In this document: one piece after another, positions 6,171 through 24,594 of the stretch
How the letters are laid out: each line of letters starts with the position of its first letter
Numbering within the stretch: position 1 is the first letter of the stretch
NCBI GenBank assembly: GCA_964470455.1
Contig: CAYYCX010000004.1
Span: forward strand, 65,572-97,571
DNA: 32,000 bases
Direction: 5' to 3'
DNA from: an uncultured Wenzhouxiangellaceae bacterium
GTDB lineage: Bacteria; Pseudomonadota; Gammaproteobacteria; Xanthomonadales; SZUA-36
Notes under the pieces: generated by a model
Seen by the model: the letters and a program-made list of their open reading frames with translations, nothing else
The model's database searches: none
Told to the model about the DNA's origin: nothing
Made by a program: the position numbers and the translations under genes

Positions 6171-6502
6171 GCCTCTACAACCTGCAGAAATTCCTGTACG
6201 TGCTGAACCGCGACGAGGCAGCGCAGCAAGCGTTTCGTGACGACCCGGCCAGCCAGCTGGACCAGTACGACCTGACGCCGGAAGAGCGCGGCGCGCTGGA
6301 ACAGGGCGACATCGGCCTGTTGTACGTGCTGGGCGTGAACGGGCAGATCCTGATGCATTTCGCCGCCTTTCTCGGCATTGCCTGGTTCGACTACCTGGAG
6401 CTGATGCGCAAGGGCATCGAGAAATACGGACCGGTGCGGGCCGGCATCTATGCCATGACGGGCGCCGGTAAAAGCTTCGCAGAAGAGGACGTACGCAAAT
6501 GA
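6167..6502 (+). CDS. LigA-like small (alpha) subunit of a class III extradiol dioxygenase
   Basis: 111 aa. LQKFLYVLNRDEAAQQAFRDDPASQLDQYDLTPEERGALEQGDIGLLYVLGVNGQIL follows the LigA-domain pattern (protocatechuate 4,5-dioxygenase alpha chain). ATGA overlaps occur with both the upstream and downstream genes. Confidence 0.7.
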   Translation: MSLYNLQKFLYVLNRDEAAQQAFRDDPASQLDQYDLTPEERGALEQGDIGLLYVLGVNGQILMHFAAFLGIAWFDYLELMRKGIEKYGPVRAGIYAMTGAGKSFAEEDVRK

Positions 6503-7335
6503 GTCTGGTTTACGCAGGCGTGCTGAGCCACGCGCCGGGAATTACCGGCCGCGCCAGCCTTGTGAAAAACACTGAAAAGCGCGACGAGTTCTATGCCGCG
6601 CTGGACCGTCAAAGGCAGGAGATTGAAGCCTGCGGCGCCGAGGCACTGGTGGTGATGGCAGCCGAACACTTTGCCAATTTCTTCATGAACAACATGCCCG
6701 CCTACTGCATCGGCATGGCCGAGTACTACGAAGGCCCTATCGAAGACCCGAAGTGGCTGGGCATTGAACGGCGCAGGATTCCGGGCGCGCCCGACCTCAG
6801 CCGCCGCCTGGCAGTGGAGATCATGCAAACCGTCGACGTGGCCTATTCGGAAGAGTGGAAGTTCGACCACGGCATCATGATCCCGCTGAATTTCCTCACG
6901 CCGCGCTATGACCTGCCCATCATTCCGGTGAACATCAACTGCCAGGGCCCGCCGCTGACACCGTTGCATCGCGCCTGGGCTTTTGGCGAGGCCATCCGCC
7001 GCGCCTGTGATTCAGTGCCGGAAAAAATCGCCGTGGTCGGAACCGGTGGCATTTCGCATTGGCCGGCTACGCCCGATTCCGGCAAGATCAATGAACCCTG
7101 GGACCGCGAATTTCTTCGCCAGTTGATGAGCCAGGACCGCGAAGCGTTGCTCAGTTACGACGATGTGCAAACCTATGCCGATGCCGGCCAGGGCGGTTTT
7201 GAAATCCGCACCTACATTGCCGCTGCGGCGGCCGCGGGTGGCAAAGGCGACCTGCAGTTCTACACCGCCGAGCTGCCGATTTTCGCGGTGGGCTGCACGG
7301 TGGCCCGGTTTGATATTGCTGCCGCCGAAAGTTGA
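6499..7335 (+). CDS. Class III (LigB-type) extradiol ring-cleavage dioxygenase, catalytic subunit (HpaD/HpcB-like or LigB-like)
   Basis: 278 aa. The N-terminus YAGVLSHAPGI and the internal GTGGISHW are typical of the LigB superfamily. It is translationally coupled to the LigA-like gene. Confidence 0.8.
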   Translation: MSLVYAGVLSHAPGITGRASLVKNTEKRDEFYAALDRQRQEIEACGAEALVVMAAEHFANFFMNNMPAYCIGMAEYYEGPIEDPKWLGIERRRIPGAPDLSRRLAVEIMQTVDVAYSEEWKFDHGIMIPLNFLTPRYDLPIIPVNINCQGPPLTPLHRAWAFGEAIRRACDSVPEKIAVVGTGGISHWPATPDSGKINEPWDREFLRQLMSQDREALLSYDDVQTYADAGQGGFEIRTYIAAAAAAGGKGDLQFYTAELPIFAVGCTVARFDIAAAES

Positions 7336-7344
7336 AAATGGGCC

Positions 7345-8268
7345 GTGATGAACCCAGCTGACTCCCACCCTGCCGCAACAGCCGATACCAGACAGCGGGT
7401 GATGGACTTCATGCGGTCCTTCACCATGGAAGTGACGCCCGCAGGCGCAAAGCGCATTCATGATTTCAGGGAACACATCGCGGAAGGCACCTGGGTGTAT
7501 GTCACTGCATTGAGCGGCAGCGATTTCAACGAGACGGTTGAGGCCTGCAAAAAGCTGGCTGATCAAGGCATGACACCGGTGCCGCATTTCACTGCCCGCA
7601 GCATGGCCAGCGCCCGGGCGCTGGACGATCATCTCCAACGGGTAACCTCGGAGGCCGGCGTGACACGCGTGCTGGCGATTGCCGGCGCCGACAGCAAGCC
7701 GGCGGGGCCGTTTGCGGACACGCTGTCGATGCTGGAAACGGGGCTGTTTGGAAAGCATGGCATCCGTTCCATCGGGCTGGCCGCCCATCCGGAAGACCCG
7801 CCCGTTGATGACCGTTCGGTAATCCGCGAACACGCCGACCGCAAAATCGAGTTCGCCGGCAAAACCGGCATCGAGATTTACTTCGTCACCCAGTTTGTGT
7901 TCGAAGCCAGGCCCATTTTCGACTTCGTGGCGCGCATTCGGTCGCTGGGCAACGACCGGCCTCTGGTACTTGGCCTGCCCGGCCTTGCAACCCTGCAATC
8001 CCTGATCAAACACGCCACCGCCTGTGGCGTGGGTCCGTCCATGCAGTTCCTGACCGGGCGCGCGCGGGATTTACGCAAGCTGCTGAGCGTGCAAGCCCCC
8101 GACAAACTGGTCATCGACCTGGCCAACTACGTGGCCGAACACCCCGAGAGCCGCATCAGCGGCGTGCACATTTTCCCGCTGGGAGGCTTCGAGAAAAGCG
8201 CCGCCTGGGCCAATGCCGTGGTGGCGGGGGAGTTTGAGTTTGTGAAAGGCGGCTTTGCGGTTAGCTAG
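7345..8268 (+). CDS. Methylenetetrahydrofolate reductase (MetF/MTHFR) family protein
   Basis: 307 aa. The pattern parallels MetF: PHFTARS, VLAIAGAD, AAHPE, VTQFVFE, GLPGL. The start is GTG 7345 or ATG 7348. Confidence 0.75.
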   Translation: MMNPADSHPAATADTRQRVMDFMRSFTMEVTPAGAKRIHDFREHIAEGTWVYVTALSGSDFNETVEACKKLADQGMTPVPHFTARSMASARALDDHLQRVTSEAGVTRVLAIAGADSKPAGPFADTLSMLETGLFGKHGIRSIGLAAHPEDPPVDDRSVIREHADRKIEFAGKTGIEIYFVTQFVFEARPIFDFVARIRSLGNDRPLVLGLPGLATLQSLIKHATACGVGPSMQFLTGRARDLRKLLSVQAPDKLVIDLANYVAEHPESRISGVHIFPLGGFEKSAAWANAVVAGEFEFVKGGFAVS

Positions 8269-8290
8269 GCCATCCCCAAACCACCGGTTC

Positions 8291-9652
8291 TCACCTGCTA
8301 CTCGTTGGCCTTAAACCCAATGACGCCAATCGCTGCCCCAAATCAGTCGGCGCAAAGAAAACGTATGCATTGCCCTGTCTGGCTTTTTCCAACAGGCCTA
8401 AAGCCTCCAGTCCGAGCAGATCGGTTCGTGCCGTCTGGTAGACGACGCCATGCGACCGCTTATGTGTATCCATCCGGTAGGCGGCTCCTGGATTGCGCAG
8501 GGCATGATTCAGCAGAGCCTGCTGGCGGTGATTGAAGCGCCCGCGCAAGGCAGGTGAGCGGGCCAGCAAACGTTCGGTTTCTCCTCGTTCACGGGTCTTG
8601 CGTTCGACGTATGCGTGCAAAGCGGCAATGGCTTTTCGGATGGTCTTCAGTTGATGAATGAGGAAATAGGTAGTGTCGTTATGCCCTGTTTCGGTATGCA
8701 GATAAGCACGCACGTATTGCGCTGGAGCCTTGCGCAGGATATGGCTGATGGAAGTGTATTCCATCAACCAGTAGCCGCTGCGCGCCATGGACCAGTAGAA
8801 CAGCGCCCGCGCGGTACGGCCGTTTCCATCAGCGAACGGATGATCGTAGCCCAGCATGAAATGCAACAGGATGGCCCGGAGAACGGGATGCACGAATGGC
8901 AATGAATTTTCATCCGCATTGGCGAAGTCGCACAGCCGTTGCATGCGTTCAGGCAACTCCCTGTACGAAGGTGGCTGATGCAATACCGTGTGGTCGCGCT
9001 CATCAACAATCCGTACCTCATCGTTCTGCCGGTATCGACCGGCATCCTGCGGGTTCTCCAGCGTGCCATCGGTGATCATCCGGTGCAGTTCCAGCACAAG
9101 AGCCGGTGTAAGCAGCTCGTGGCGCAACGAGCGCAGATGCTCCATCGCCTGGTAGTTGTTGAAGATCATCCGCTCGCTGTGATCGCGGGGTTTGCGGCCG
9201 CTGCGCAGCATGTCCGCGGCTATCCGGCGCGTGGTTGCGGCGCCTTCGAGCTGGCTGGAAGTGATGGCCTCTTCCACCAGAGAGCTGATCAGAAACCGCT
9301 GGGATTCCGTCTGTAGCGGTGCGCCGGCGGCAGACTGGATGTGCCCTGCCGCATCACGATCAATATGATGCAGGTCGAGGGCAACCGGACCCGGAACCGC
9401 GAATACGAATGGTTCGCCCTGTTTATCCAACAGGGGCAGCGATTCCAGTAATGCCGAACGGGCCAGACTGACCGCAGCCCACCACTCATCATGGGACAAG
9501 TTTCCGGGTGCCTGTCGCCGTTTCAGCTCGTCCCAATGCAGGTACTTGCCAGTCGGCAAGGGGGTTTGATGCGCAAACAAATCCGACATGCGATCTGCGG
9601 ACAGATGCTCAAAAGCCCAATCCAGAGTGGGTGCGTGCTCGGGAATTCGCAT
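8291..9652 (-). CDS. Fic family protein (class II; AMPylase-type Fic domain with an intramolecular inhibitory motif and a C-terminal wHTH-like region)
   Basis: 453 aa. The canonical Fic motif HPFADGNGRTAR is present. The upstream TSSQLEGA fits the [S/T]xxxE[G/N] inhibitory-helix motif. The gene is convergent with the MTHFR-like gene across a 22-nt gap. Confidence 0.9.
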   Translation of the reverse strand: MRIPEHAPTLDWAFEHLSADRMSDLFAHQTPLPTGKYLHWDELKRRQAPGNLSHDEWWAAVSLARSALLESLPLLDKQGEPFVFAVPGPVALDLHHIDRDAAGHIQSAAGAPLQTESQRFLISSLVEEAITSSQLEGAATTRRIAADMLRSGRKPRDHSERMIFNNYQAMEHLRSLRHELLTPALVLELHRMITDGTLENPQDAGRYRQNDEVRIVDERDHTVLHQPPSYRELPERMQRLCDFANADENSLPFVHPVLRAILLHFMLGYDHPFADGNGRTARALFYWSMARSGYWLMEYTSISHILRKAPAQYVRAYLHTETGHNDTTYFLIHQLKTIRKAIAALHAYVERKTRERGETERLLARSPALRGRFNHRQQALLNHALRNPGAAYRMDTHKRSHGVVYQTARTDLLGLEALGLLEKARQGNAYVFFAPTDLGQRLASLGLRPTSSR

Positions 9653-10018: not shown

Positions 10019-10357
10019 ATGAGCAGTGTCATCATCCGAAAGCTGGATTCACTCAGGAAAGCCGGCGCGATGAATATTACAGATGTCGCGAATGTCCTGG
10101 GCACCACCCCAGCCACCGTTTCCCGCTGGAATAGCGGCAAGGCATCACCGCAGCGTGCCAAGGAACTTTTGCTCGTTGAGCTTGAGTATGTTGTTGACCG
10201 CTTGCAGGAGTTCTACACGCCCGAGGAAGCCAGACTCTGGATTTTTTCGCGGCACCGCCTGCTGCAAGACCGAAAGCCCGCAGACCTGATCCAGGAGGGC
10301 AATATCGAGCCTGTGCTGGCTGCCATTGAGCAACTGGACGACCTGGTTTACGTATAG
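10019..10357 (+). CDS. Xre-type HTH / DUF2384 (ParS/MbcA-like) antitoxin
   Basis: 112 aa. The N-terminal HTH is NITDVANVLGTTPATVSRWNSGK. The C-terminal part EARLWIFSRHRLLQDRKPADLIQEGNIEPVLAAIEQL follows the DUF2384 pattern. It lies 18 nt upstream of a RES-domain gene. Confidence 0.8.
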   Translation: MSSVIIRKLDSLRKAGAMNITDVANVLGTTPATVSRWNSGKASPQRAKELLLVELEYVVDRLQEFYTPEEARLWIFSRHRLLQDRKPADLIQEGNIEPVLAAIEQLDDLVYV

Positions 10358-10375
10358 GCGACCGAATAACGCCTC

Positions 10376-10903
10376 ATGGCAAGTTCATCCGTACATGACC
10401 CGAAAATTCTCGATGTGCTCAGCACACTGGATGTTGCGTCTCTGGAGACTCAAGTTTATCGGGCAGTATTTCAAGGACGGGATCCTACCGTTGGCAGCCT
10501 CGCAGGTGGCAGATGGTCGCCCCCTCAGACGTTTGAAGCACTGTACACAAGCTTTGAACCGCAATGCGCTATTGCCGAAGTCTATTTTCACCTGAATCGA
10601 CAACCCGTATTCCCGTCCCGACCGGTTGAACTTCACACACTGGGCATCGTTACTCAACGCACCATTGATATTTCCACAGACAAAGCCATGAGCGCTCTGG
10701 GATTGAATGAAAAAGTCCTGACATCGCTCGATTACACCCCTTGCCAGGACATAGGCCACGCCGCTGAGTTCCTGGGCTTTGATTCGTTGTGTGTCAGAAG
10801 CGCGCGATGCAGCTCAAACAATATGGTGATTATCGTTGGTCACCTGGCTACGGTAATTGAGCCGAAATCTTTCAAGGTTATCGATTGGTCGGAAGCCTAT
10901 TGA
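10376..10903 (+). CDS. RES-domain toxin (ParT/MbcT-type NAD+-targeting toxin family)
   Basis: 175 aa. The R-E-S signature positions are visible (GGRWSPP ... AIAEVYFH ... LCVRSAR). Its size and its position after the Xre/DUF2384 antitoxin are typical. Confidence 0.85.
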   Translation: MASSSVHDPKILDVLSTLDVASLETQVYRAVFQGRDPTVGSLAGGRWSPPQTFEALYTSFEPQCAIAEVYFHLNRQPVFPSRPVELHTLGIVTQRTIDISTDKAMSALGLNEKVLTSLDYTPCQDIGHAAEFLGFDSLCVRSARCSSNNMVIIVGHLATVIEPKSFKVIDWSEAY

Positions 10904-11100: not shown

Positions 11101-11631
11101 TTATTTTTCTGTTGTGGTTAGCGTGGACCACGATACTCGCGCATGTGTTCCATCGCCTTTTGAAAGTTTCTTTCTGCCAATAAGCCGGGCTTCGAATTCA
11201 AAGTCTTTGGATATTTTTACAACCACTAGTTTATTGAAGTTGCCGGCGCGCTTGACTTGAACTTGCTCCCCGGCTTTTTCTGGAGAGATGGTCTTTACCT
11301 CAACAAAATCATTGCCCAATCTGCCGTCCGAACCCCTTGTATGTGGCTTGTGTCGCTTGATGCCGTACTTAATTTCCGCATAGAGCTCTCCTAACTCACC
11401 CCAGATTTGCAGGTAGCGGTCTGTCAGGGCGTGGTACGAGATTGCACTCTCAACCAAGCTCTCGAAAATAAACACCAATTCAGGATCGGGCTGTGACAGT
11501 CCGGTTGATAATTCTTTCTCATCTAAGGGCTGCCACTCCCAAGGGTTATACCCACAGGCAGCGGCATCAGCTATTTGCTCTGAGCTATAGCCTTCGTTAT
11601 GCATGTCGTGCAGAAAGTCCCAATCGCTCAT
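11101..11631 (-). CDS. Hypothetical protein (possible PD-(D/E)xK-like C-terminal core, unverified)
   Basis: 176-aa ORF with no competing frame. The C-terminal part GSDGRLGNDFVEVKTISP...LVVVKI has a D...E-x-K arrangement. I recognise no family with confidence. Confidence 0.55.
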   Translation of the reverse strand: MSDWDFLHDMHNEGYSSEQIADAAACGYNPWEWQPLDEKELSTGLSQPDPELVFIFESLVESAISYHALTDRYLQIWGELGELYAEIKYGIKRHKPHTRGSDGRLGNDFVEVKTISPEKAGEQVQVKRAGNFNKLVVVKISKDFEFEARLIGRKKLSKGDGTHARVSWSTLTTTEK

Positions 11632-11681: not shown

Positions 11682-11939
11682 CTACTGCGAAGCGCTACCG
11701 CGCTTTCCCCGGCGCCCACCCGGAGCGCTGGTTATGCGTGATGCTTCCTCTGCGATACTCAACAAGCCGTGCAAAGCATCATTAACTGCCTTTGAGGTGG
11801 GAAAGGCCTTGGCTATGTCCGGCTCAAGTAAAGCAACTGATGTGCCCTTTCGTACCTCGGCGTGAAACTTCCCACGCTCAAGTTTCTTGAAATCGGATCG
11901 TTTGTACTCGCTACGTATTTCGTCTTTAGCCTTCTTCAT
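11682..11939 (-). CDS. Small hypothetical protein, antitoxin-like pattern
   Basis: I prefer the ATG at 11939 (MKKAKDEIRSEYKRSDFKKLERGKF...LLEPDIAKAFPTSKAVNDALHGLL). This (E/D)-I/M-R-x-EY...RGK...L-(D/E)PD-x-AK-x-FP-x-S-x-x-VN-x-AL pattern recurs in small TA-partner proteins. That link is from memory, not from a search. Confidence 0.5.
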   Translation of the reverse strand: MKKAKDEIRSEYKRSDFKKLERGKFHAEVRKGTSVALLEPDIAKAFPTSKAVNDALHGLLSIAEEASRITSAPGGRRGKRGSASQ

Positions 11940-11964
11940 ACAGTTCTCGTATTTGGACACTCTG

Positions 11965-12185
11965 TTACCCGCGACCATACGCCAGCACAAACTGAAATGA
12001 CCGGAGGCATGGATAGGTTTCAGGGATTACGTCCTTCATGGGGTGTTTCTTCTCGATTGCAGCAGCTATCTCTGATATGAAGTTTGGAACCGTAGTGATC
12101 TCGATGTCCTTACCCCAAGTGCTGGTTGGTTGTGACCTTGAAGTACCGATTATGGCCCGCTTCTGAATTGTGGCAGGCTTTGTGC
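11965..12185 (-). pseudogene. 3' portion of a small gene split by the IS3-family insertion
   Basis: The frame is open from the IS left end to the stop at 11965 (…STKPATIQKRAIIG...IPETYPCLRSFQFVLAYGRG). It is in frame with the 5' portion at 13505-13760 once 12186-13504 is removed. Confidence 0.6.
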
Positions 12186-12235
12186 TGAATCGCCCCGGGT
12201 TTTGAGGAGGCTCCAACCTTTGAGAGAATGGAGCC

Positions 12236-12559
12236 ATGAACACATCTACGAAGTTTTCCCCGGAAGTCCGAGAACGCGCTGTGCGTATGGTGCAGGAGCA
12301 TCGCGGTGATTACCCCTCCCTTTGGGCGACGATTGAATCGATTGCACCGAAGATCGGCTGTGTACCGCAGACCCTGCATCAATGGGTACGCAGGTATGAG
12401 ATCGACAATGGCATTCGGGACGGTGTCAGCAGCGAAGAGCGTGATCGGATCAAGGCATTGGAACGTGAGGTGAAAGAGCTGCGGCGGGCCAACGAGATTT
12501 TGAAGCTGGCCAGTGCGTTTTTCGCCCAGGCGGAGCTCGACCGCCGTCTCAAGTCCTGA
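12236..12559 (+). CDS. IS3-family transposase OrfA (HTH / leucine-zipper part)
   Basis: 107 aa. [16 protein letters not shown]...[18 protein letters not shown] and the [29 protein letters not shown] coiled-coil tail are typical of IS3 OrfA. Confidence 0.85.
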
Positions 12560-12612
12560 ACGCTTTTATCGACAGTCAACGAGATACCTACGGGGTCGAG
12601 CCCATCTGCAAG

Positions 12613-13464
12613 GTGCTGCAGATGGCACCGTCGGGGTATCGGCGCCACGCGGCACGCCAACGTAATCCGATGCTGCGTTGTGCCCGTGATCAGCGTGATG
12701 AGCTGCTGATGCCACAGATCCAGCAGGTATGGGACCGGAATATGCGGGTCTACGGTGCCGATAAAGTCTGGCGACAGATGAACCGGGAAGGCATAGCGGT
12801 TGCCCGCTGTACAGTTGAACGCTTGATGCAGCGCATGCAGTTGCAAGGTGCACGGCGCGGCAAGGTGGTTAAGACCACGCTGGCGGATAAAGGCGCCGTC
12901 TGCCCCCTGGACAAGGTCAACCGGCAGTTCAAGGCCAGTCGTCCCGATGAGCTGTGGGTGTCGGACTTTACCTATGTCTCAACCTGGCAGGGCTGGCTGT
13001 ACGTGGCTTTTGTCATCGACGTCTTTGCGCGGCGCATCGTGGGTTGGCGGGTCAGCCACTCCATGCAAACCGACTTTGTCCTCGATGCGCTGGAACAGGC
13101 GTTGTATGACCGACGGCCGGCAGGAGGCAGTTCACTGATCCATCACAGCGACCGAGGCTCGCAATACCTCTCCATCCGTTACAGCGAGCGTCTCGCCGAA
13201 GCGGGCATAGAACCCTCTGTAGGTAGTCGTGGAGACAGCTATGACAATGCCCTGGCCGAGACCATCAACGGCTTGTACAAGACCGAACTGATCCACCGCT
13301 GCGGGCCGTGGAAAACGAGGCAATCGGTAGAAATGGAAACTCTGCGCTGGGTACACTGGTTCAACCACCAGCGACTACTGGAACCGATTGGCTATATCCC
13401 TCCGGCTGAAGCTGAGGCAAACTACTGGCGGCTACTCGCTGAGAACGAAAAGCGTGCTGCTTGA
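12613..13464 (+). CDS. IS3-family transposase OrfB (DDE catalytic domain), probably expressed as an OrfAB fusion
   Basis: The DDE pattern is present: WVSDFTYV ... HHSDRGSQY ... YDNALAET. The frame is -1 relative to orfA and is open from 12445 (…[27 protein letters not shown]). The T5 run GCGTTTTTCGCC (12515-12526) is a candidate slippery site. Confidence 0.85.
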   Translation: MLQMAPSGYRRHAARQRNPMLRCARDQRDELLMPQIQQVWDRNMRVYGADKVWRQMNREGIAVARCTVERLMQRMQLQGARRGKVVKTTLADKGAVCPLDKVNRQFKASRPDELWVSDFTYVSTWQGWLYVAFVIDVFARRIVGWRVSHSMQTDFVLDALEQALYDRRPAGGSSLIHHSDRGSQYLSIRYSERLAEAGIEPSVGSRGDSYDNALAETINGLYKTELIHRCGPWKTRQSVEMETLRWVHWFNHQRLLEPIGYIPPAEAEANYWRLLAENEKRAA

Positions 13465-13504
13465 ACTTAAACCAAATGGCCTCCACGAAACCCGGGGCGA
13501 TTCA

Positions 13505-13760
13505 TCCCTGTAATAGCTGCATACTCGGCTGCAGAATAAACAAATTTCTTCCTCAAGAACTTCTCTTCTCGTTTTTCCCAGCTCAATGCATCCCATGAGG
13601 TTTCCAAATGCACCAATTTCTTGCTTGCGGGATCATATGCCAGAACGTCCAGCTCGTTATCCCAGCCGCCTTTCCCGCGCCTGTTCGCTTTGATGTTCGT
13701 GCGCACAAAATACCCTTGAATGGCGTACCACTCTGCAGCAAGGGATTCGAGAAAGTTCAT
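13505..13760 (-). pseudogene. 5' portion of a small gene split by the IS3-family insertion (first gene downstream of the pAgo gene)
   Basis: A strong RBS (AAGGAG, 5 nt, ATG at 13760) precedes it. The sequence reads MNFLESLAAEWYAIQGYFVRTNI...GGWDNELDVLAYDP...LVHLETSWD...AAEYAAITG and then runs into the IS right end. The last 12 aa of the tracked ORF are IS-encoded. Confidence 0.6.
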
Positions 13761-13872
13761 TCGTGCTCCTTGCAGTTAACGCTAATGCTCAGCCGTGCAC
13801 CGCTTCGACGCGTGCGCTGGAGTTACTTGTTGGGCAGCTTTGTTCTCCGTCACTATGTGCTCAATGACGCGC

Positions 13873-15300
13873 CTACATAAAAAATCTGTAGTTGTACACG
13901 TCATCAACAATTTCCGGTGTGCCCTTCACAACATTAGCAAATCGCTGAGAGTACACTAGCGTCGCCGGCAATGTCTTATAAAGTGTGTTGTTGTTCCAGT
14001 CACACTTGGTAAGCGAATATACACTCAGGCAGGTGTCATGCCAGCCACCCACCCCCGACCAGCGCCTGAGTAATAAGGGGTTCGGTGTAGGCTTGAAAAC
14101 GGCCTCTTTAAAGACAGGTCGATTCGCCTGTTGGGCATTTACGCCGGACACGCTACCCTGTGTCCACAGCAGGCATTCAGTTTCAGTAAGCGGCAGATAG
14201 CTACCACGATCAAGCGGATAGGCAGCCGGCCGTGCTTTCTGATGCGGGGGCTGCGGCAGATCGACTTTGAGACCGTGCCACTCCGTACTTCGGATGATCT
14301 GGATGAGTTCCACCTCGGTCTTTGAACCAAATGCGTCCAGCGCGCCCTGGATTTCTTCCTCCGTAAAACGCGTCGACTTGTGAACGAAAATTTTGCGCGG
14401 CACATGTGCGTAGTGGCCGTTTTGATAGAGCATGAGGCTGCGCGAAAGAACGGACATCATTTCCTGATAGCTCAAATACGGATTCCCTCTCCTGTCCGTC
14501 TCGAATTCCCGCGTGTCATAGGCGACAAATTCAAAACCTGTCCCGTCCGGATCGAAGATCTGGCTACAACATGTGCTGTATTCCATACCATCTCCATGCT
14601 TGCGCATCGCATAGCTAAGGCCGATATAGGCCTCGTCACGATCAAAGTCCGCAAGCTTCCACGGAATCCCGCCGGCTTTGGCATAGAGAGCGACCGTAAT
14701 GCCCCACATCGCCTGCGAACGGCAGGTACGTGAGAATACAGTTTCATTCATGATCTGCACGGGAATGCCGAGCGGCGCTATCAGTGCTTTTAGTCGGTCG
14801 TGGAGATTAAAACCTTCGTACGTAAATGCGTTTTTCCACTCCGGTGGTAGATAGATCATGAGCACATCGAAAGAGCCACGCTTCGCCCGCGTAGCGCCGA
14901 TGGCGTGAACGAGTGCGCGCACAAGCCCCTCGCCATTCTGTGCCTGTGCAAGGCGCCCACATTCATCCGGTGGCATAAACTTTAGGGCATCATTCGCCGG
15001 AACGAGCGGAACGCGAAATACGCTCTCAAAGCCCGGATACTCAAAATAGTAATTCTGTGCTTCTCTCACTTGCGCCTTGCGCTGCATTTCGGAGGCGATG
15101 TGCTCGATCCGGTTAATGCGATCAGCGGGTGCCAGATAGGCAAGCCGCACCTGCGCCGGAAAACCAAGATCACGACTGTATGGTCCATTTGCGATCAGAC
15201 CCCGAAGCGGGTGCGTGTCAGTCTTCTTGTCCGCAAACAAGAGAGCCGGTTCTGGGAGCATGCCATGTGCGGATAGTTCTTCGTGCCGCTGCGCGTTCAT
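13873..15300 (-). CDS. Short prokaryotic Argonaute (MID-PIWI only, predicted catalytically inactive)
   Basis: 475 aa, too short to carry N/PAZ domains. A MID 5'-end pocket-like H-K-Q-K pattern is present ([20 protein letters not shown]...[11 protein letters not shown]). The PIWI-like AYIGLSYA and IFVHKSTRF occupy the places where active Agos have IGxD and RDG. The ATG overlaps the stop of the SIR2-APAZ gene (ATGA). Confidence 0.85.
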
Positions 15301-17063
15301 GTGGATGCCCTCCTGCTGAACGCCGTACGGGTGGAAACAGTGAAGGAAGCTGGGTAGTCCGTATCAGCGCCGTAGGTGACGGTAACCGGTTTGCCCTGGC
15401 CAATTGGGCCTATAAGAATCTCGATCCAGGCGTTTAGGATTTCGTAGGACTGATTGTTATATCGTTTGAGTTTACGATTGCGCAGAAAGTCTTGCGCATC
15501 TTCACGATTCTTTAGCGGTTTGATCCATACATCAGGCTCCAGCAAGAGCCACAGGACACTGGCACGCTCTTCAAGCCTTAGCTTGACACACTCGGCCCAG
15601 TGCGTATCGGGAAGTTCACGGACGGCTCCGCAAATTGGTGCGGGATTGCCACGAAAGCCAACGGCTTTCTTTAATGATGCGAAGCGTTCATCGTTAGCCT
15701 GCCGGTAGTCAACAACAGCGTAGCAGGTCTTTCCCTTCTTGCGTGAGAGTACGGGTTTGTCGCGGCAAAGTGCTTCTGAAACGCCATGCTCGTAGAGCGA
15801 CTTTAGATGTGTGGATGCGGCGATCTCAGCGACAGGATCGGCAATCTCCCGCATGCCGATATCATTCGCAATCAGCCCCTCCAAGCTTTTCGCAACCTTT
15901 GTTGAATCGCCCCAGAATACGACGCCATCCTGATAGGCAATGACGGCATCCGGCTGCTTCTCGCGCACAGCGGCAAACACATCGGCAACGGGAACATTGC
16001 CGGCAGGAAGCGAGCCGCACTGCCGGGGCGCGTCGACGATTTCGAGTGCGTTCGTTCGCAGGATCGGATAGCTCTTGCCGCATGCGGGCAACGGAATGGA
16101 TACCGGATGCGCCCGTGCTGAGCGCACATTGCCATCCAGTGCCTGTGGCTTGTCAGGAATTTGCCGCCAGATCTTGTAGAGCATCAGATCGAACGTTCCG
16201 GTCTCTACAATATAGGCCGCAACGCCCTTTTCCCGCGCAGCTTCGATAAACGCCGCGACAGCAGGTGCGGCGCTGGATGCGCGCGGGACGGACCACCAGA
16301 TTCCGTGCGGGAATGGATTGGGCTGCTCTAGCGCCTTTCCCAGCATGGCCATGACGTTGCTGTCCCGGCCGCTATAACCGGCGACGATCAGGCCGTTGCG
16401 TCCCGCCGCCGCAACGAAGCACTCCTGAATCTTCTCATCGTTACTAAGCAGATCCCTGGAAAGGTTTTTGATTTTCTGGTACCGAAAGTCCCCATGAATC
16501 TTTGCGTATAAGGGAAACCGCTCTGCATTTAGTGCTTCAAGCGCGGCATATGACCCTTCAAGATGAAAAGGCGTCAGGTTCTTTCCGGCTACGGCGGCGT
16601 AGGCATCCTCAATAACATCATCGAAATTCGTGGTGAAGACAAGACGTGACCGCTCCATTGCCAGAAGCGAAGCCAACGCGCGCGGCCCGATTGTCAGCGT
16701 CACCTTGTCCGGTGACATCTGCTCCTGAATATAGGATTGCTGTGCAGCGTAGTCCTCGCCGAACATCAGTTTGAAATAGTAGGAATATTCCTCATTACTC
16801 CAGATTTCCGGGCAGCCTTTGCCGTCGAAGTAGCTCTGGATCTTCGCCTTGATGGCATGATTGCTGACGTCATGAGCCTGAACGTCCTGGTTCTCTTTCG
16901 CGCAGTAGTACCGTCGCTTTAAATCCCAGATCAGATCCACCGCAGCGGGGAGACCGGACGAACGTGACGTGCCCGCGCCGAGTAACCACATAAGCTGCTG
17001 CGCATGCTGCACGAAGTGACGCAGAAACTCCTGTTCATCGATCTGTAAATTCACGCTGCTCAA
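15297..17063 (-). CDS. SIR2-APAZ protein (SIR2-family NADase domain fused to an APAZ-sized C-terminal region), partner of the short pAgo
   Basis: 588 aa. SIR2_2-type motifs are [23 protein letters not shown] and KIHGDF, followed by a C-terminal extension of about 300 aa. It is translationally coupled to the pAgo gene. The start is TTG 17063 or GTG 17054, and no in-frame ATG is available. Confidence 0.85.
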
Positions 17064-17256
17064 TCTGCCATCTGCCCCAAAAGTCTTTCCACGGCTCTTC
17101 AGCGCCGTTCAGCTCATACCAATCGATTTCTTCAGGTATGGAGATTGACTGCATCATGTCCCCTAATGTCCAACGCATTTAGCTAAGCGGCCACGCAAAG
17201 CCTAGGCCGAGTGAGCGCTACCAACGGCTTAAAGGCGTTGTGTGGTGACATTAGCA

Positions 17257-17787
17257 CTACGTGCTCCCAAATTTAGTGACCAGCGTGAAGTACACGAACC
17301 AGCTCCCTAAAGCAAAAGCCGCAAAAGAAAATGATAGCAACCCAATATACGTCCATTTGGAAATGCTTATCCATCGCTCGTTTTCGGCGTACATGAAATA
17401 ATGCATTGCGTGGTGAGCAGCCAAGCCCACTGCACCAAACAGCACACCCAACACATAGCCCGATAAAGAATTTACTAGCCCCATAAGAGTCGGTGCCAGA
17501 CCAACGTCTGGCCAAAGATTACCGACAAAAGCGAGAAGTGCTATTGCAGCACCAGCATTTATTATCATTGCAGTTCGAAGCGCGGATTGAGCTGAAGTGT
17601 ACTCCGAACGAAATGCTTCAATCGATGTTTCAACTGCAGCTTGGAAATTGACTATGTCTAGTTGGCTTGGGTCCTCAGTATCGACCAAGTCACGGATTTG
17701 CATACCCCAGATTTCCTTGATTCTAGGTCGCAACTTCTTATCCGAAACTTTCATTGTTATGGATTTCAAGCGATTTTCTCTTGGCAC
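17257..17787 (-). CDS. Hypothetical polytopic membrane protein
   Basis: 176 aa (GTG at 17787; an alternative ATG at 17754 gives MKVSDKK...). The N-terminal 70 aa or so are polar. Three to four hydrophobic helices follow (IINAGAAIALLAFVG, LSGYVLGVLFGAVGLAA, IGLLSFSFAAFALGSWFVYF). The gene is AT-richer than its neighbours by eye. Confidence 0.6.
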   Translation of the reverse strand: MPRENRLKSITMKVSDKKLRPRIKEIWGMQIRDLVDTEDPSQLDIVNFQAAVETSIEAFRSEYTSAQSALRTAMIINAGAAIALLAFVGNLWPDVGLAPTLMGLVNSLSGYVLGVLFGAVGLAAHHAMHYFMYAENERWISISKWTYIGLLSFSFAAFALGSWFVYFTLVTKFGST

Positions 17788-17950: not shown

Positions 17951-19570
17951 TCAAGCGGCGGTGGTCAGTTCGGAAACGGCGGCCTTCATGAGGGTTGCGC
18001 CGGTGCTGTGGGCGGTGGCGAGCTGGGCTTCCAAGGCGTCCACCAAGGCCATCAGTTCGTCCACTTTAGCCACGATCCGGTGTTGTTCGGCGAGGGGCGG
18101 GATGGGTACAGGATACGCTGCGAGCGAACGCCCTGTCAGGTGCTTGATCGTGGCTCCGGTGAAATAGCTAGCAAGTACACCATTCGAACTATCAATCTGA
18201 AGATTGAGCGCGAGAAATTCAGTCATTACAGCGGCGCATGGGCGAACGCGATGAATAGCCTTTTGAAAGTACATTTCGGAAACTTCATCGCCCCAGATGG
18301 CGCAGCGACCCGGTTCACCTCCCTCACAGATGAGCAAATCACCATACTTCAGCCGAAGTTCATTCACTTCACGTTGCTCGACTTTCATATTCTTTATGTC
18401 ATTAAGATCAAACCGCATCCACTGCACGTTTGTATTCCTGAGGTAGGGCTTGAGCTCGCCGCGATTCTTTTCCACGTCCAACATTTTTCCCAAGCGTTGT
18501 TCGCCTACACCTGCAAAGGAAATCCAAGTCCATGAATCTGGTACAGCTTGCCGATCTGCATCCGGCGTTACCGCCCACCTGTCCAAATCAACGCCGCAGG
18601 AGCTAAGTGCGCTCTCTGATGGTTCGTCGTTGGGGTCCTGGGGGACGAGTTTGCCATGGACGGCGAGGGTGAGGATGGACTTGCGGAGGTCGGCGGGGGA
18701 GATGCTGTAGGACTTGTGGAAGAGCAGGTCGAGGTTGACTGGGGTGGGTGCGTCGGCGAAGCGGGCTAGCGACGCCTGGGCGAGTTCGGTGTGCCGTGTC
18801 TCCCGTTCCTGTTGCTGCGCTTCCAGCCGATCACACAACTCCATCAGCTCATCCACTTTGGCCACGATTCGCTTTTGCTCGGCGAGCGGTGGGAGCGGAA
18901 ACGGTGCAAGTCGGGCATCAACAGTCCCGAGGCGTGGCAGATTCATCCCGTAGCTCTTGGAGTTCGCGTATGCGAGGAACGCTGGACGCTTCAGCGCATA
19001 GCAAAGGTAGCCGGGATCAATAAACCCAAACGCACGGATTGGGATGATCTCGGTGGTGCAATAGCCCGATGCATCTGCAACGAGTACCTTATTCAGGTAT
19101 GGGCGGAGCTTTCCATAGAGGACATCGCCCGTGCGGAATGCTGTCTTCGTACTCTTTGAGGGACTCTCACGAAATATCTTTCTCTGCAGCAGCCGGGAGG
19201 TGTCTTTTTCAATGTCTTCCAAATCAAGGAGCCATGTGTCCTCCGGAATGTCTGTCGATTTGACTTTTTCCGACGAGCCGTAGTCGACGACATTGCCGAG
19301 CCGCACCCACTGCCAGCTAGAAGGAATTATCGAAAGGTTGTCGTCGTCGAGCGCCTCGACCGGTGAACAGCGTACCTCTTTTCGACTCCGCAAGGCCGCA
19401 AAGTGTCTTTCGATTCGTTCCACCAAGGCTGCCGCTGGTTCATCCGCGGAGGATTGCTCGACGAGTCGGCCGGTGGTAGCCCATTCAAGTACCAACTCCC
19501 GCATCTTCGCCACTGCATCGGGTGCATCAGCGAAGAGTTCGAACTTTTCGAAGAAAGTCTCCAGCTTCAT
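17951..19570 (-). CDS. hsdS: Type I restriction-modification system specificity subunit HsdS
   Basis: 539 aa with two target-recognition regions. They are separated and followed by conserved helices: PPLAEQKRIVAKVDELMELCDRLEAQ and PPLAEQHRIVAKVDELMALVDALEAQ. A 4-nt overlap links it to hsdM. Confidence 0.9.
   Translation of the reverse strand: MKLETFFEKFELFADAPDAVAKMRELVLEWATTGRLVEQSSADEPAAALVERIERHFAALRSRKEVRCSPVEALDDDNLSIIPSSWQWVRLGNVVDYGSSEKVKSTDIPEDTWLLDLEDIEKDTSRLLQRKIFRESPSKSTKTAFRTGDVLYGKLRPYLNKVLVADASGYCTTEIIPIRAFGFIDPGYLCYALKRPAFLAYANSKSYGMNLPRLGTVDARLAPFPLPPLAEQKRIVAKVDELMELCDRLEAQQQERETRHTELAQASLARFADAPTPVNLDLLFHKSYSISPADLRKSILTLAVHGKLVPQDPNDEPSESALSSCGVDLDRWAVTPDADRQAVPDSWTWISFAGVGEQRLGKMLDVEKNRGELKPYLRNTNVQWMRFDLNDIKNMKVEQREVNELRLKYGDLLICEGGEPGRCAIWGDEVSEMYFQKAIHRVRPCAAVMTEFLALNLQIDSSNGVLASYFTGATIKHLTGRSLAAYPVPIPPLAEQHRIVAKVDELMALVDALEAQLATAHSTGATLMKAAVSELTTAA
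18049..18106. repeat. hsdS conserved-region repeat, copy 1 (C-terminal helix)
   Basis: This 58-bp segment is about 81% identical (47/58 by hand alignment) to 18841-18898. Confidence 0.8.
18841..18898. repeat. hsdS conserved-region repeat, copy 2 (central helix)
   Basis: Direct repeat of 18049-18106, located 792 bp away. This is the usual substrate for TRD shuffling in type I S subunits. Confidence 0.8.
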
Positions 19571-21042
19571 TCAGCCGTCCCTGCGGTGGCGCTTAGTGCT
19601 TTCTGAAGTTCTGCCTTCAGCGCAGCGCGGGTCTCAGCGATTTGAGCGAGGAGTTTTTCGTATTCGGGCAAAAGGTGATCCACGTCGCCAGGGCCGGTGT
19701 CGGGGTTGTGCGGGTTCTTGAGATCGAGGTTGTAGTTGCCGGCCTTGATGTCTTCGATGGACACGCGCCAGGCTTGCTCGTTCTCTGCGCGGGCGGCGAA
19801 GCCGTCATCCTCGCTGCCCCACCAGGCTTTTTCGTTTTCGAACTCCTCGATGCGGATGGGTTTGCCTTTGTTGTAGCTCTTGGCGCCGGGGGGATAGGGG
19901 TGCTCGTAATACCAGACAGCGGTGGTCGGCGCGCCTTTGGTGAAGAACAGCAGGTTGGTGCGGATGCCGGTGTAGGGGTTGAACACGCCGTTGGGCAACC
20001 GGACGATGGTGTGAAGGTTGCAGTCGGTGAGCAACGCTTCCTTGATGCGGGTTTTCACACCTTCACCGAACAGGGTGCCGTCGGGTAATACCAGGCCTGC
20101 GCGGCCGCCCGGTTTGAGCAACTTCATCAGCAGCACCAGGAACAGGTCGGCGGTTTCGCGGGTACGGAAATCGGCGGGGAAGTTGGCTTCGATGCCGTCT
20201 TCCTCCATGCCGCCGAAGGGTGGATTGGTGACGATCACATCCACGCGTTCCTTTGGGCTCCAGTCGCGCAGTGGACGGGCCAGTGTGTTGTCATGGCGAA
20301 CATTCGACGGAACGTCGATGCCATGCAGCAGGAGATTGGTCATGCACAAAACGTGCGGCAGATGTTTCTTCTCGATGCCGGCAAAGCAGTCCTGGATGGT
20401 GCGCTCGTCGGCCTCGGTTTTGGCCTGCTTGCGCAGGTGCTCGATGGCGCAAACCAGGAAGCCGCCGGTGCCGCAGGCGGGGTCGAGGACGGTTTCACCG
20501 AGCCTGGGGTTGACCTGGTCAACGATAAACTGGGTAACGGCGCGTGGGGTATAGAACTCGCCTGAGTTGCCGGCTGACTGCAGGTCTTTGAGCAACTTCT
20601 CGTAGATGTCGCCGAACATGTGGCGGTCATCGGAGGCGTTGAAGTCGATGCCGTTGATCTTGTTGATCACCTGCCGCATCAGGGTGCCGTTCTTCATGTA
20701 GTTGTTGGCGTCCTCGAACACCATGCGGATCAGGCCGGCAATCTTGTCGGCGCCACCCGTCAGCGCCTTGAGCTTGGGCAGCAGGGTGTTGTTGACGAAG
20801 TCGAGCAGCGGCTCGCCGGTGATGCCTTCGTCATCGGCCGCCCAGGCGGACCAGCGCAGGTGCTGCGGCAGCGGCGATTTGTAGGTGTCGCGCAGAATTT
20901 CCATTTCCTTTTCGCGGTCGTCGAAGATCTTCAGGAAGAACATCCAGCCGAGTTGTTCGAGTCTTTGTGCATCGCCGTACGTACCGGCGTCCTTGCGCAT
21001 GATGTCCTGGATGGTTTTGACGAGGTTGGAGACGTTGGGCAT
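19567..21042 (-). CDS. hsdM: Type I restriction-modification system N6-adenine DNA methyltransferase subunit HsdM
   Basis: 491 aa. Motif I is LDPACGTGGFL and motif IV is VIVTNPPFGG. It lies between hsdR and hsdS. Confidence 0.92.
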   Translation of the reverse strand: MPNVSNLVKTIQDIMRKDAGTYGDAQRLEQLGWMFFLKIFDDREKEMEILRDTYKSPLPQHLRWSAWAADDEGITGEPLLDFVNNTLLPKLKALTGGADKIAGLIRMVFEDANNYMKNGTLMRQVINKINGIDFNASDDRHMFGDIYEKLLKDLQSAGNSGEFYTPRAVTQFIVDQVNPRLGETVLDPACGTGGFLVCAIEHLRKQAKTEADERTIQDCFAGIEKKHLPHVLCMTNLLLHGIDVPSNVRHDNTLARPLRDWSPKERVDVIVTNPPFGGMEEDGIEANFPADFRTRETADLFLVLLMKLLKPGGRAGLVLPDGTLFGEGVKTRIKEALLTDCNLHTIVRLPNGVFNPYTGIRTNLLFFTKGAPTTAVWYYEHPYPPGAKSYNKGKPIRIEEFENEKAWWGSEDDGFAARAENEQAWRVSIEDIKAGNYNLDLKNPHNPDTGPGDVDHLLPEYEKLLAQIAETRAALKAELQKALSATAGTAE

Positions 21043-21045
21043 GGG

Positions 21046-23433
21046 TCAGGCGGCTTCCTGGTAAAGCTGGGTTTCAAGTTCGTGAATAGCGGCGAGGTAG
21101 TTCTCCCTGCCGCCAAAAAGGTGGACGATTTCAACCGGTGTGCCGAAGCGGGTCAGAGGGTCGACTTTGAGGATTTCGAGCGACTCAACGCTTCTCAGGC
21201 CGGCATCGGCGTATTTGTCGAGCAGGGCTTCGAGCACCGCGCGCACCGGGTCGCCATACTTGCCGAACACATTGCGCTTGCGCACCTTCTCCGCTCGTTC
21301 GCGCCGCGTGAGTGGCGGCTGGTCGAAGGCAATGTGGCAGATGAGATCGAACGCGTCGAGGTCGCGGCCAACCTGGTCGGAGAGTTCATCGATGAACACG
21401 CCATGGCTGGCAAGTTCATCGATAACGGCCTGCTTGCGCTCGGCGGCGTTCCAGGCGTTGAGGAAAGTATCCAGCGACGCATAGGTTTTGCGCACGGCCT
21501 TGCGCGTGTAGTCCTTCAGCGATTCGGTGATGAGCTTGCCGTTGGCATCGAGGTACTGCACCCGCTCGCTGACGATGTTGACCTCCACATCGTCCACCAC
21601 GAACTTGCGGGTGGGTTCGTGTACTCCGCCCGGCGGCTCGCCGCCTATGATGTCGGTTGGCCCTTCGCCTGCAGGTACGCCAGAGCCTTCCTGTTCATCC
21701 GGCAGCACCGGAGGCTCACCGGGCCTGGGTTCATAGATTTGCACCGGGTCACCATCAAAGTCCGGATCGGCGAACAGCGCCGTGGCCCGCTTGAAGTCCA
21801 TGATGGTGAAGTAGAACTTGTTGTAGTCCTCATTGATGCGCGTACCGCGGCCGATGATCTGCTTGAACTCGGTCATCGACTGGATGCGCTTGTCGAGCAC
21901 GATCAGGCGGCAGGTCTGCGCGTCTACGCCGGTGGACATCAGCTGCGAGGTGGTGGCGATCACCGGAAAAGTGGATTCGGGGTCGATGAAGTTGTCGAGC
22001 TGGGCTTTACCTTCGTCGTTATCACCGGTAATGCGCATCACGTAGCGGGGGTTGGCCGCCGCCAGGTCGGCATTGGTATTGACCAGCGCCTGGCGCATCC
22101 GCTCGGCGTGGTCGATGTTCTCGCAAAACACGATGGTCTTGGCGTATCGGTCGGTGGCCCTGAGGAATTCCGTGACCTTGGCAGCCACCAGCTCAGTGCG
22201 CTTTTCCAGGATCAGGTTGCGGTCGAAATCGGTTTCGTTGTATTCGCGGTCGTCGATGAGCTGGCCGTACTTGTCGGTTTTGCCCTTTTCAGGGCGCCAG
22301 CCTTCCAGATCCCGGTCGATGCCGATGCGCACGACTTTGTAGGGGGCGAGAAAGCCGTCCTCGATGCCCTGCTTGAGCGAGTAGGTGTAAATCGGGTCGC
22401 CGAAGTACTCGATGTTGGAGACGTCTTTGGTCTCCTTGGGTGTAGCGGTCATGCCAATCTGGGTGGCCGACGAGAAATATTCCAGCACTTTGCGCCAGTT
22501 GGCATCCTCGGCGGCGCTGCCGCGATGACACTCATCGACGATCACCAGGTCGAAGAAATCCGGGGAGAACTGCCTGTAGATGTTTTGCTCTTCCTCGGTG
22601 CCCGTCACTGCCTGGTAAAGCGACAGATAGATCTCAAAGGCCTTATCCACCGTGCGGTTGGTGATCTTGGTCATGGCCTGGCCAAACGGCTTGAAGTCGT
22701 TGGTCTTGGTCTGGTCGGCGAGGATATTGCGATCCACCAGGAACAGAATTCGCTTTTTGGCGCCCGATTTCCACAGGCGCCAGATGATCTGGAAGGCCGT
22801 GTAGGTCTTGCCGGTGCCGGTTGCCATCACCAGCAGGAGGCGGTTCTCACCTCGTGCGATGGCATCGATGGTGCGGTTAATGGCGATGAGTTGGTAGTAG
22901 CGCGGCGCTTTGCCCGAGCCGTCGTCGTAATAATCCTGGCTGGCCACCTCCTGCTGGGCGGCTGTGTAGCCTTTGGCCTTGCTGTAACGCGCCCAGAGCT
23001 CCTCGGGCGTGGGGAACTGGTCGAGCGGAATTTCCCGTTCGACGGGGCCGGATTGGGCGGTGCGATCATGCTCCAGGAAGGCATCGCCATTGCTGCTGTA
23101 GGCGAACGGCAGGTCGAGGATCTGGGCATATTCCAGGGCCTGCTGCATGCCGGCGCCCACCGTGTGGGTGTTGTCCTTGGCCTCGATTACAGCAATGGGC
23201 AGGCCGGGTTTGAGGTACAGGATGTAATCCGCCTTCTTGGCTTCGCCACGCTTGACCGTCTTACCCCGAACAATCACCCGGCCCTTGGTGAAATAGATTT
23301 CCTCGCGCAACTGAGTCATCACATTCCACTTGCCGCCATTGGGGCCGCCGGTGGGGCCGCCATTGGGGCCGACCAGCGCGGGCGTGATGAACTTGGTGCG
23401 GATGTCCGCTTCGGTAAGGTTCTTCTTGTCCAT
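21046..23433 (-). CDS. hsdR: Type I restriction enzyme R subunit HsdR (short, EcoEI/type IB-like architecture)
   Basis: 795 aa. Helicase motifs are LLVMATGTGKT, VIVDECHRG and TTSQLMSTGVDA...QIIGRGTR. The C-terminal ~150 aa (VFIDELSDQVGRDLDAFDLICHIAFDQPPLTRRERA...) resemble the EcoEI-type R-subunit C-terminal domain. Confidence 0.9.
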   Translation of the reverse strand: MDKKNLTEADIRTKFITPALVGPNGGPTGGPNGGKWNVMTQLREEIYFTKGRVIVRGKTVKRGEAKKADYILYLKPGLPIAVIEAKDNTHTVGAGMQQALEYAQILDLPFAYSSNGDAFLEHDRTAQSGPVEREIPLDQFPTPEELWARYSKAKGYTAAQQEVASQDYYDDGSGKAPRYYQLIAINRTIDAIARGENRLLLVMATGTGKTYTAFQIIWRLWKSGAKKRILFLVDRNILADQTKTNDFKPFGQAMTKITNRTVDKAFEIYLSLYQAVTGTEEEQNIYRQFSPDFFDLVIVDECHRGSAAEDANWRKVLEYFSSATQIGMTATPKETKDVSNIEYFGDPIYTYSLKQGIEDGFLAPYKVVRIGIDRDLEGWRPEKGKTDKYGQLIDDREYNETDFDRNLILEKRTELVAAKVTEFLRATDRYAKTIVFCENIDHAERMRQALVNTNADLAAANPRYVMRITGDNDEGKAQLDNFIDPESTFPVIATTSQLMSTGVDAQTCRLIVLDKRIQSMTEFKQIIGRGTRINEDYNKFYFTIMDFKRATALFADPDFDGDPVQIYEPRPGEPPVLPDEQEGSGVPAGEGPTDIIGGEPPGGVHEPTRKFVVDDVEVNIVSERVQYLDANGKLITESLKDYTRKAVRKTYASLDTFLNAWNAAERKQAVIDELASHGVFIDELSDQVGRDLDAFDLICHIAFDQPPLTRRERAEKVRKRNVFGKYGDPVRAVLEALLDKYADAGLRSVESLEILKVDPLTRFGTPVEIVHLFGGRENYLAAIHELETQLYQEAA
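23332..23367. repeat. Three imperfect 12-nt tandem repeats inside the 5' end of hsdR (encoding GPNG-GPTG-GPNG)
   Basis: The plus strand reads GCCGCCATTGGG / GCCGCCGGTGGG / GCCGCCATTGGG, followed by a degenerate fourth unit. The protein reads ITPALVGPNGGPTGGPNGGKWNV. Confidence 0.8.

Positions 23434-23485: not shown

Positions 23486-24594
<1,109 letters not shown>

Follow-up and report, generated by a model that had tools for sequence, protein, structure and literature searches.

What is encoded by two overlapping genes on the minus strand of a metagenomic contig, and do the genes around them belong to the same system? This question is raised by a stretch of 32,000 nucleotides (nt) of contig CAYYCX010000004.1 from an uncultured Wenzhouxiangellaceae bacterium, called the window below, to whose positions all coordinates refer. 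A preliminary description, made from the sequence alone, had read the two genes as a SIR2-APAZ protein and a short prokaryotic Argonaute (pAgo) of the short pAgo/SIR2-APAZ (SPARSA) type, and had pointed to a non-ATG start and to the neighboring genes as features specific to the locus. We conclude with high confidence that the two genes make up an intact SPARSA operon of the Geobacter sulfurreducens Sir2/Ago (GsSir2/Ago) type of short-pAgo clade S1B; the clade placement we infer from best hits and architecture. The window genes are orthologous over their whole length to the pair of G. sulfurreducens, and both open reading frames (ORFs) are full length, without frameshift or premature stop.

The identity of the first gene product is clear from profile and structure-database searches, which had been proposed as a check and which returned strong matches for both proteins. 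The PADLOC model Aga_SIR2-PNTD1-PNTD2 matches it with an E-value of 1.7e-188 over profile positions 1-557 of 558, and Pfam SIR2_2 with 3e-15; no TIR match was found in Pfam or PADLOC, whose Sir2 models match instead. In the Protein Data Bank (PDB), chains 8in8_B, 8jkz_A and 8jl0_A are matched at E 7e-208, residues 9-583 aligning with 5-580 at 53.6% identity. The entry 8IN8 is a SIR2-APAZ/Ago-guide RNA-DNA complex (PMC10474274), and the study of G. sulfurreducens SPARSA in PMC10781750 uses identical residue numbering. The SIR2 motifs listed in the preliminary description are all there: GAGTS at residue 29, TTNFDD at 144 and HGDF at 190. The catalytic Asn and His (Table 1) occupy the positions of the GsSir2 N142/H186 dyad, alanine mutants of which lose NADase activity (PMC10781750), and the NAD-binding Asp occupies that of D230, whose change to alanine abolishes NAD+ binding and defence (10.1101/2021.12.14.472599); Y93, R194 and H167 correspond in the HMMER alignment to GsSir2 Y89, R190 and H163. 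The limits of the Sir2 and APAZ domains were carried over from the GsSir2 linker 309-331 (PMC10781750) with an offset of +4. The C-terminal ~300 amino acids (aa), previously assigned to APAZ by size, are covered by the PNTD1-PNTD2 part of the PADLOC model and by the alignment to GsSir2-APAZ.

The second gene product aligns end to end with GsAgo. It matches PADLOC pAgo_I with E 3.9e-179 (profile 3-457 of 457) and PDB chain 8in8_C with E 1.4e-208, residues 7-475 aligning with 6-473 of the 473-aa GsAgo at 62.0% identity. No N or PAZ region is found in its 475 aa, in agreement with the MID-PIWI-only architecture proposed earlier. It carries HDRLK at residue 167, PVQIM at 180, YAKAGGIPW at 206, which includes the expected GGIPW signature, IGLSY at 226 and VHKST at 306. 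The H-K-Q-K pattern noticed in the 5′-end pocket maps onto GsAgo, in that H167, K171, Q182, N185, R191 and K208 correspond to H166, K170, Q181, N184, R190 and K207; the first five of these GsAgo residues contact the guide 5′-phosphate or 5′-AU (PMC10781750, PMC10474274), and an HK-type MID pocket has been assigned to short pAgos of this type (10.1101/2021.12.14.472599). A loop in PIWI, equivalent to the glutamate-finger loop in active Argonautes, is identical to GsAgo 261-276 at 14 of 16 positions, the changes being I266 to E267 and K270 to R271; in GsAgo this sensor loop senses guide/target pairing at positions 13-15 (PMC10474274). The free C-terminus, YRFFM, is identical to that of GsAgo.

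Can this Argonaute cleave a target? The catalytic Asp positions had been suspected to be replaced, as IGLS stands for IGxD and HKST for HRDG. A six-sequence profile (the window Ago and relatives) was aligned by hhalign with TtAgo from pTT27 (L008, 22997-25054, minus strand), whose residues 478, 512, 546 and 660 were checked as D, E, D and D. In this alignment, which is colinear over 254 columns and covers TtAgo 406-664 (MID-PIWI) only, D478, E512, D546 and D660 fall on S229, N273, S309 and Q452, with the RLKAL..QI(M/L)N and AKAG motifs in register. IGLS and HK[S/T]T are also present in GsAgo, which is catalytically inactive (10.1101/2021.12.14.472599). Because the tetrad positions carry these four residues, the window Ago is predicted to be unable to slice; neither an intact DEDX tetrad nor an N-PAZ part was found.

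The two genes are joined in the way that had been described. The TGA of the SIR2-APAZ gene (15297-15299) overlaps the ATG of the Ago gene (15298-15300) as ATGA and, in addition, an AGGAGG Shine-Dalgarno (SD) sequence lies inside the 3′ end of the SIR2-APAZ gene, 8 nt before the Ago ATG (junction sequence: AGGAGGGCATCCACATGAACG). In clade S1A the same modules form a single polypeptide, a feature not found here, as the TGA parts two ORFs. Each window protein is matched by the fused models PDLC02420 and PDLC02384, but only in the half that corresponds to it (E 7.9e-75 / 7.9e-82). Since the split models outscore the fused ones (E-188/E-179 vs E-75/E-82), the architecture is the split one of S1B rather than the fused one of S1A.

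How far does the conserved unit extend? A genome scan yielded five full relatives. Four of them (L001-L004) are close, with 88-90% identity in Ago and 82-86% in SIR2-APAZ, and the fifth (L005), from a Pseudomonadales metagenome-assembled genome (MAG), is distant, with 66% and 57%, respectively. The ATGA overlap and the internal SD are kept in L001-L004. Comparison of the window with these four by blastn gives 82-85% nucleotide identity over 13816/13866 to 17076/17174 (6121-9485 in each locus) and none outside, and the homology ends before the membrane ORF upstream and before the interrupted gene downstream, which starts at 13760. The ratio of nonsynonymous to synonymous substitutions (dN/dS) against the four comes to 0.11-0.12 in SIR2-APAZ and to 0.05-0.07 in pAgo, which indicates that both genes are under strong purifying selection with their function maintained. 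The close cassettes sit in MAGs of very different phylum labels (Desulfurivibrionaceae, "Deferribacteres bacterium" isolate HK-STAS-KSB1-1, an unclassified bacterium and Gammaproteobacteria), and their flanks are entirely different. Cassettes this similar within wholly different flanks imply that the two-gene module has spread horizontally, with MAG binning error as a possible alternative. A search of PLSDB gave no close match to the cassette, only a 207-nt match at 70% in a gene that is annotated "nuclease PIN" on a Bradyrhizobium plasmid.

It might be supposed that flanking genes, namely the membrane ORF and/or a 158-aa nuclease-like gene split by an insertion sequence (IS), are functional accessories and that the locus is a larger, locus-specific variant of SPARSA. 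Both candidates share the strand of the cassette and lie near it, and the 158-aa family has a PD-(D/E)xK-like predicted fold and turns up repeatedly at the borders of defence clusters elsewhere (TIR/TPR, type I restriction-modification (R-M), ResIII plus methylase). However, tblastn of the neighboring proteins and an all-against-all ORF comparison over the five relatives found only SIR2-APAZ and pAgo in common: the membrane ORF, the 158-aa gene, a DUF6998 protein, a 102-aa ORF and hsdS, each considered as a conserved partner, were rejected, as all are missing from the five related loci. The DNA homology stops short of both candidates, the IS inactivates the 158-aa gene while Sir2/Ago stays intact, and the membrane ORF has no match in PADLOC, Pfam, NCBIfam or PLSDB. 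In the founding study, moreover, no other conserved operon partners were found for GsAgo or CcAgo, which lie in defence islands (10.1101/2021.12.14.472599). This missing co-occurrence largely refutes the extended system, which we regard as extremely improbable; as judged from these comparisons, the system appears to be the two-gene cassette alone. The small downstream genes, one of them split by an IS, and the upstream ORF with three hydrophobic segments had thus been correctly observed, but their relevance was not borne out, since none is kept beside the cassettes of the relatives.

Another feature that had been regarded as specific to this locus is the start codon of SIR2-APAZ. A TTG start is invariant in six of six loci (the window and its five relatives), and in the relatives GGAGG (AGGAAG in L005) precedes it by 7-11 nt. 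Codon 4 is also a start-type codon in all six, being GTG in four, ATG in L002 and TTG in L005. The NCBI record of the contig gives a 585-aa product from GTG 17054, and an exact match to the 588-aa TTG product was not found; GsSir2 residue 1 aligns with residue 5 of the window protein. In frame, an ATG does not occur before codon 25, and a start there would cut residues aligned to the solved GsSir2 5-20. Because the TTG is invariant, codon 4 is of start type and the ATG removes conserved residues, translation starts at either TTG 17063 or GTG 17054. The non-ATG start therefore exists as claimed but is not locus-specific, the TTG being common to all five relatives: it is a conserved family state and no lesion.

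The start is preceded by a conserved non-coding leader, in which no conserved reading frame, no stable or covarying RNA structure and no Rfam match were found. Two candidates were rejected here. One is an ORF of 40-47 aa at 17035-17178 (minus strand), which runs over the start of SIR2-APAZ in a different frame. This ORF has weak tblastn matches in L001 and L003, but its frame is interrupted by stops in L001 and L004, and L002 lacks the region. The other is a structured leader RNA, for which RNAalifold drew a helix across the TTG, but with a covariation term of 0 and a shuffle z of -0.07. The conservation of the leader may reflect a promoter/5′ untranslated region (UTR) or simply recent common ancestry. 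That the leader, which accompanies the cassette across phyla, and the invariant non-ATG start would together be a dedicated expression-limiting element for a toxic NADase, the cassette being a self-contained, recently mobile module with translational throttling, is improbable in our judgment; under that idea, the TTG start could, for instance, be hidden by the predicted UCAAUCU/AGAUUGA helix.

An outline of how the system would act can be drawn from the prototype (10.1101/2021.12.14.472599; PMC10474274; PMC10781750; PMC11452484). As their 54-62% identity to a solved complex suggests, SIR2-APAZ and Ago would associate as an obligate heterodimer, with APAZ in the place of the missing N-lobe. The complex would load ~21-nt 5′-phosphorylated RNA guides, with a preference for 5′-AU, from abundant transcripts of an invader such as ColE1-type origin (ori) RNAs. 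Pairing of the guide with complementary single-stranded DNA of the invader would displace the PIWI sensor loop, and this shift would open or realign the Sir2 active site. Sir2 would then hydrolyze NAD+ to ADP-ribose and nicotinamide, leading to arrest or death of the cell and thereby to abortive infection or plasmid exclusion. Is defence against phages the primary role? The system might instead serve mainly to police plasmids or replication intermediates (ori RNAs, R-loops), or to sense stress at the level of the chromosome. GsSir2/Ago excluded only a plasmid with a CloDF13 ori and enriched ori-derived small RNAs (10.1101/2021.12.14.472599), and guides from ColE-like plasmids have been reported (PMC11452484). 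GsSir2/Ago, however, also protects ~100-1000-fold against lambda-vir and SECphi27 (10.1101/2021.12.14.472599), and such a role would be a shift of emphasis inside a known family with the same mechanism, between which the window gives no discrimination. We take a different primary role to be possible but doubtful.

Several points weigh against the reading of the locus as an intact GsSir2/Ago-type operon. Activity, guide type and targets are carried over by analogy from a prototype that is 54-62% identical. Even for the prototype the activation step is unsettled, as the structures disagree on tetramerization: activation has been placed within the heterodimer (PMC10474274) and has been attributed to target-induced tetramerization (PMC11452484). 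The experimentally validated GsSir2/Ago residues are all conserved except GsAgo N195, which functions in binding of the guide 5′-AUA and is Q196 here, the sole change of a functional residue found and a conservative one. The formal probability of the hhalign tetrad alignment is low (6%, E 0.0058), both profiles being shallow. The SD before the SIR2-APAZ start in the window is GGGG, weaker than the GGAGG of the relatives, and in a promoter/terminator scan the counts equaled the shuffled expectation, no sigma-70 promoter standing out. The last two features, together with the non-ATG start, are also what would be seen in a cryptic or decaying copy, a horizontally acquired remnant that is unexpressed or non-functional in this host, and the surrounding island has IS activity, an IS3 element having destroyed the next gene downstream. 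Against such decay, both ORFs are complete, the validated residues are kept apart from the one conservative change, dN/dS against the four relatives is only 0.05-0.12 and the non-ATG start is the state of the family. Decay is accordingly very unlikely, and an intact operon is the preferred reading.

Table 1. Features of the SPARSA cassette and of its surroundings (window positions).
Feature	Position	Strand	Details
Conserved SPARSA cassette	13816..17174	-	~110-nt leader, SIR2-APAZ gene, pAgo gene and ~57-nt tail; 3.36 kb
SIR2-APAZ gene	15297..17063	-	588 aa from TTG 17063, or 585 aa from GTG 17054; stop TGA 15297-15299
Short pAgo gene	13873..15300	-	475 aa, ATG start, MID-PIWI only; stop 13873-13875
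Translational coupling signal	15297..15314	-	AGGAGG SD 15309-15314 and ATGA overlap 15297-15300; direct sequence reading
Sir2 NADase domain	16128..17063	-	~residues 1-312; GAGTS 29-33; limits from GsSir2, +4 offset
Sir2 catalytic N146	16626-16628	-	= GsSir2 N142
Sir2 catalytic H190	16494-16496	-	= GsSir2 H186; HGD kept
Sir2 NAD-binding D234	16362-16364	-	GYSGRD 229-234; = GsSir2 D230 by +4 offset, gapless alignment
APAZ domain	15300..16058	-	~residues 336-588; gapless/near-gapless alignment to GsSir2-APAZ up to residue 583
MID 5′-end pocket, HK type	14677..14802	-	H167, K171, Q182, K208, plus N185, R191
PIWI sensor loop	14470..14517	-	residues 262-277
Degenerate tetrad positions	13945..14616	-	S229 (14614-14616), N273, S309 (14374-14376), Q452 (13945-13947)
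Conserved non-coding leader	17064..17174	-	presumed promoter/5′ UTR; nucleotide conservation with L001, L003, L004
Membrane ORF	17257-17787	-	between hsdS and SIR2-APAZ; three hydrophobic segments in C-terminal half
Type I R-M operon	17951-23433	-	complete, co-directional, directly upstream of cassette
hsdS	17951-19570	-	539 aa
hsdM	19567-21042	-	491 aa; 4-nt overlap with hsdS
hsdR	21046-23433	-	795 aa, EcoEI_R_C domain
IS3-family element	12186-13504	+	apparently intact, 1319 bp; 26-nt terminal inverted repeats, 92% complementary
IS-split gene	13505-13760 + 11965-12185	-	flanks joined give an in-frame 158-aa ORF
Xre-type antitoxin, then RES-domain toxin	10019-10903	+	Xre_MbcA_ParS_C weak (9.4e-4); RES 3.6e-19
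Fic/DOC protein	8291-9652	-	adjoins Xre/RES pair
tRNA-Arg (CCG)	29323-29399	-	

Within a defence island, the cassette stands as an independent module beside the type I R-M operon, and it shares this co-directional island with the IS3 element, the Xre/RES pair and the Fic protein. The GC content is 0.47-0.57 across ~9-19 kb vs ~0.60-0.63 in the flanks, a dip consistent with an acquired island, and the first 8 kb of the window hold housekeeping-type genes. No integrase was found beside the tRNA-Arg gene, the adjoining 392-aa ORF being AAA_14/DUF4143. RES toxins also attack NAD+. If so here, the Xre/RES pair would be a second NAD+-targeting module of the island. Odd company for a defence island is found just beyond hsdR: a 367-aa collagen triple-helix repeat protein (23491-24594, minus strand; repeats at 9.1e-23) with a sub-threshold BclA_C-like C-terminal domain.

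The IS3 element has orfA at 12236-12559 and orfB at 12613-13464, with matches to HTH_Tnp_1, rve and NCBIfam transpos_IS3 (2.6e-87); Rfam places an ALIL -1 frameshift pseudoknot at 12514-12630. The flanks, TGC and TCC, do not form a clean target-site duplication. The gene that it splits has more than 260 full-length hypothetical homologues of ~157 aa, including contiguous genes on plasmids. The family has no Pfam domain and has invariant E36, D38, H51, E53 and D57. For a homologue with 79% identity, a confident AlphaFold model (pLDDT 92) has its best PDB matches among PD-(D/E)xK nuclease folds (AF1548, the R2 RLE domain, McrC, Can2 and Bax1), with modest TM-scores of 0.4-0.5. The settings of its members vary and include the interior of a type I R-M operon, positions behind a TIR/TPR cluster or behind ParE, and a position in front of a ResIII plus methylase pair; the family may be an uncharacterized defence-island gene. 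On the Azospirillum oryzae plasmid NZ_CP054617.1 (L009 1-4489; record 497902-512077), a homologue closes a co-directional cluster of a ~9.7-kb "RNaseH domain-containing protein" gene, an AAA ATPase, a hypothetical protein and a DUF6035 protein, which may be an uncharacterized large defence system. In public collections the membrane ORF is found only as a 148-aa version (from M29) in a singleton cluster. Two small co-directional ORFs lie below the IS, at 11101-11631 and 11682-11990 (both minus strand), neither of which is kept beside Sir2/Ago; the former encodes a 176-aa protein with a sub-threshold DUF6998 match (1.5e-4) in a singleton cluster in public data, and the latter, of 102 aa, has no family match.

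What does the locus add? The two proteins are nameless in NCBI, and others in the 90% cluster of the Ago are labeled "nuclease PIN" or "hypothetical protein." This is probably because generic libraries under-call this Ago, the Pfam Piwi match (0.006) lying under the gathering score, and because NCBIfam has no model naming SIR2-APAZ or Ago. Assignment to SPARSA of the GsSir2/Ago type with mapped residues corrects the annotation and has little importance beyond that. With 54-62% identity to the prototype, the pair is a further natural variant that could serve comparative biochemistry or provide an alternative scaffold for short-pAgo nucleic-acid detection tools, and the near-identical cassettes in MAGs of differing phyla document horizontal spread and open no new question. 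By all appearances, the locus is an ordinary and hitherto nameless orthologue of a system whose structure and function have been characterized.

That system is GsSir2/Ago (8IN8, 8JKZ, 8JL0, 8K87/8K88, 8Y7Z), which provides the closest solved structures (E ~1e-208), in line with the Geobacter-type architecture suggested earlier. The gene order is equal and the lengths are similar (588 and 475 aa vs 584-587 and 473 in the solved chains), both have the Sir2 N/H dyad and the D230 equivalent, the HK pocket, the sensor loop, the YRFFM terminus and the inactive tetrad, and both lie in a defence island. They differ in ~40-46% of the sequence, in N195, in two positions of the sensor loop and in host lineage, the closest relatives of the window pair being in MAGs from several phyla. 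CcSir2/Ago of Caballeronia cordobensis and other operonic S1B systems are likened by description, as a split SIR2-APAZ and short pAgo in NAD+-depletion defence (10.1101/2021.12.14.472599); phage and plasmid specificities vary among members of the Sir2/Ago family in published work. PgSir2-Ago of Paraburkholderia graminis, in S1A, has the equal three modules but in a single chain, whereas the window has two polypeptides with the ATGA overlap. SPARTA (TIR-APAZ and short pAgo, S2A) shares an inactive short pAgo, an APAZ-fused NADase and activation by RNA guide and DNA target, but its effector is TIR rather than Sir2, and the window Ago matches SPARTA Agos at only E ~1e-21 to 1e-22. Active long pAgos have N-PAZ-MID-PIWI and DEDX, in contrast to the window Ago with no N or PAZ and S/N/S/Q. 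ThsA of Thoeris and DSR2 have a Sir2-fold NADase with the Asn/His dyad, as reflected in weak PADLOC matches to ThsA and SIR2 models, but they sense by a SLOG domain or by tail-tube recognition, whereas the window system would do so by Argonaute and APAZ.

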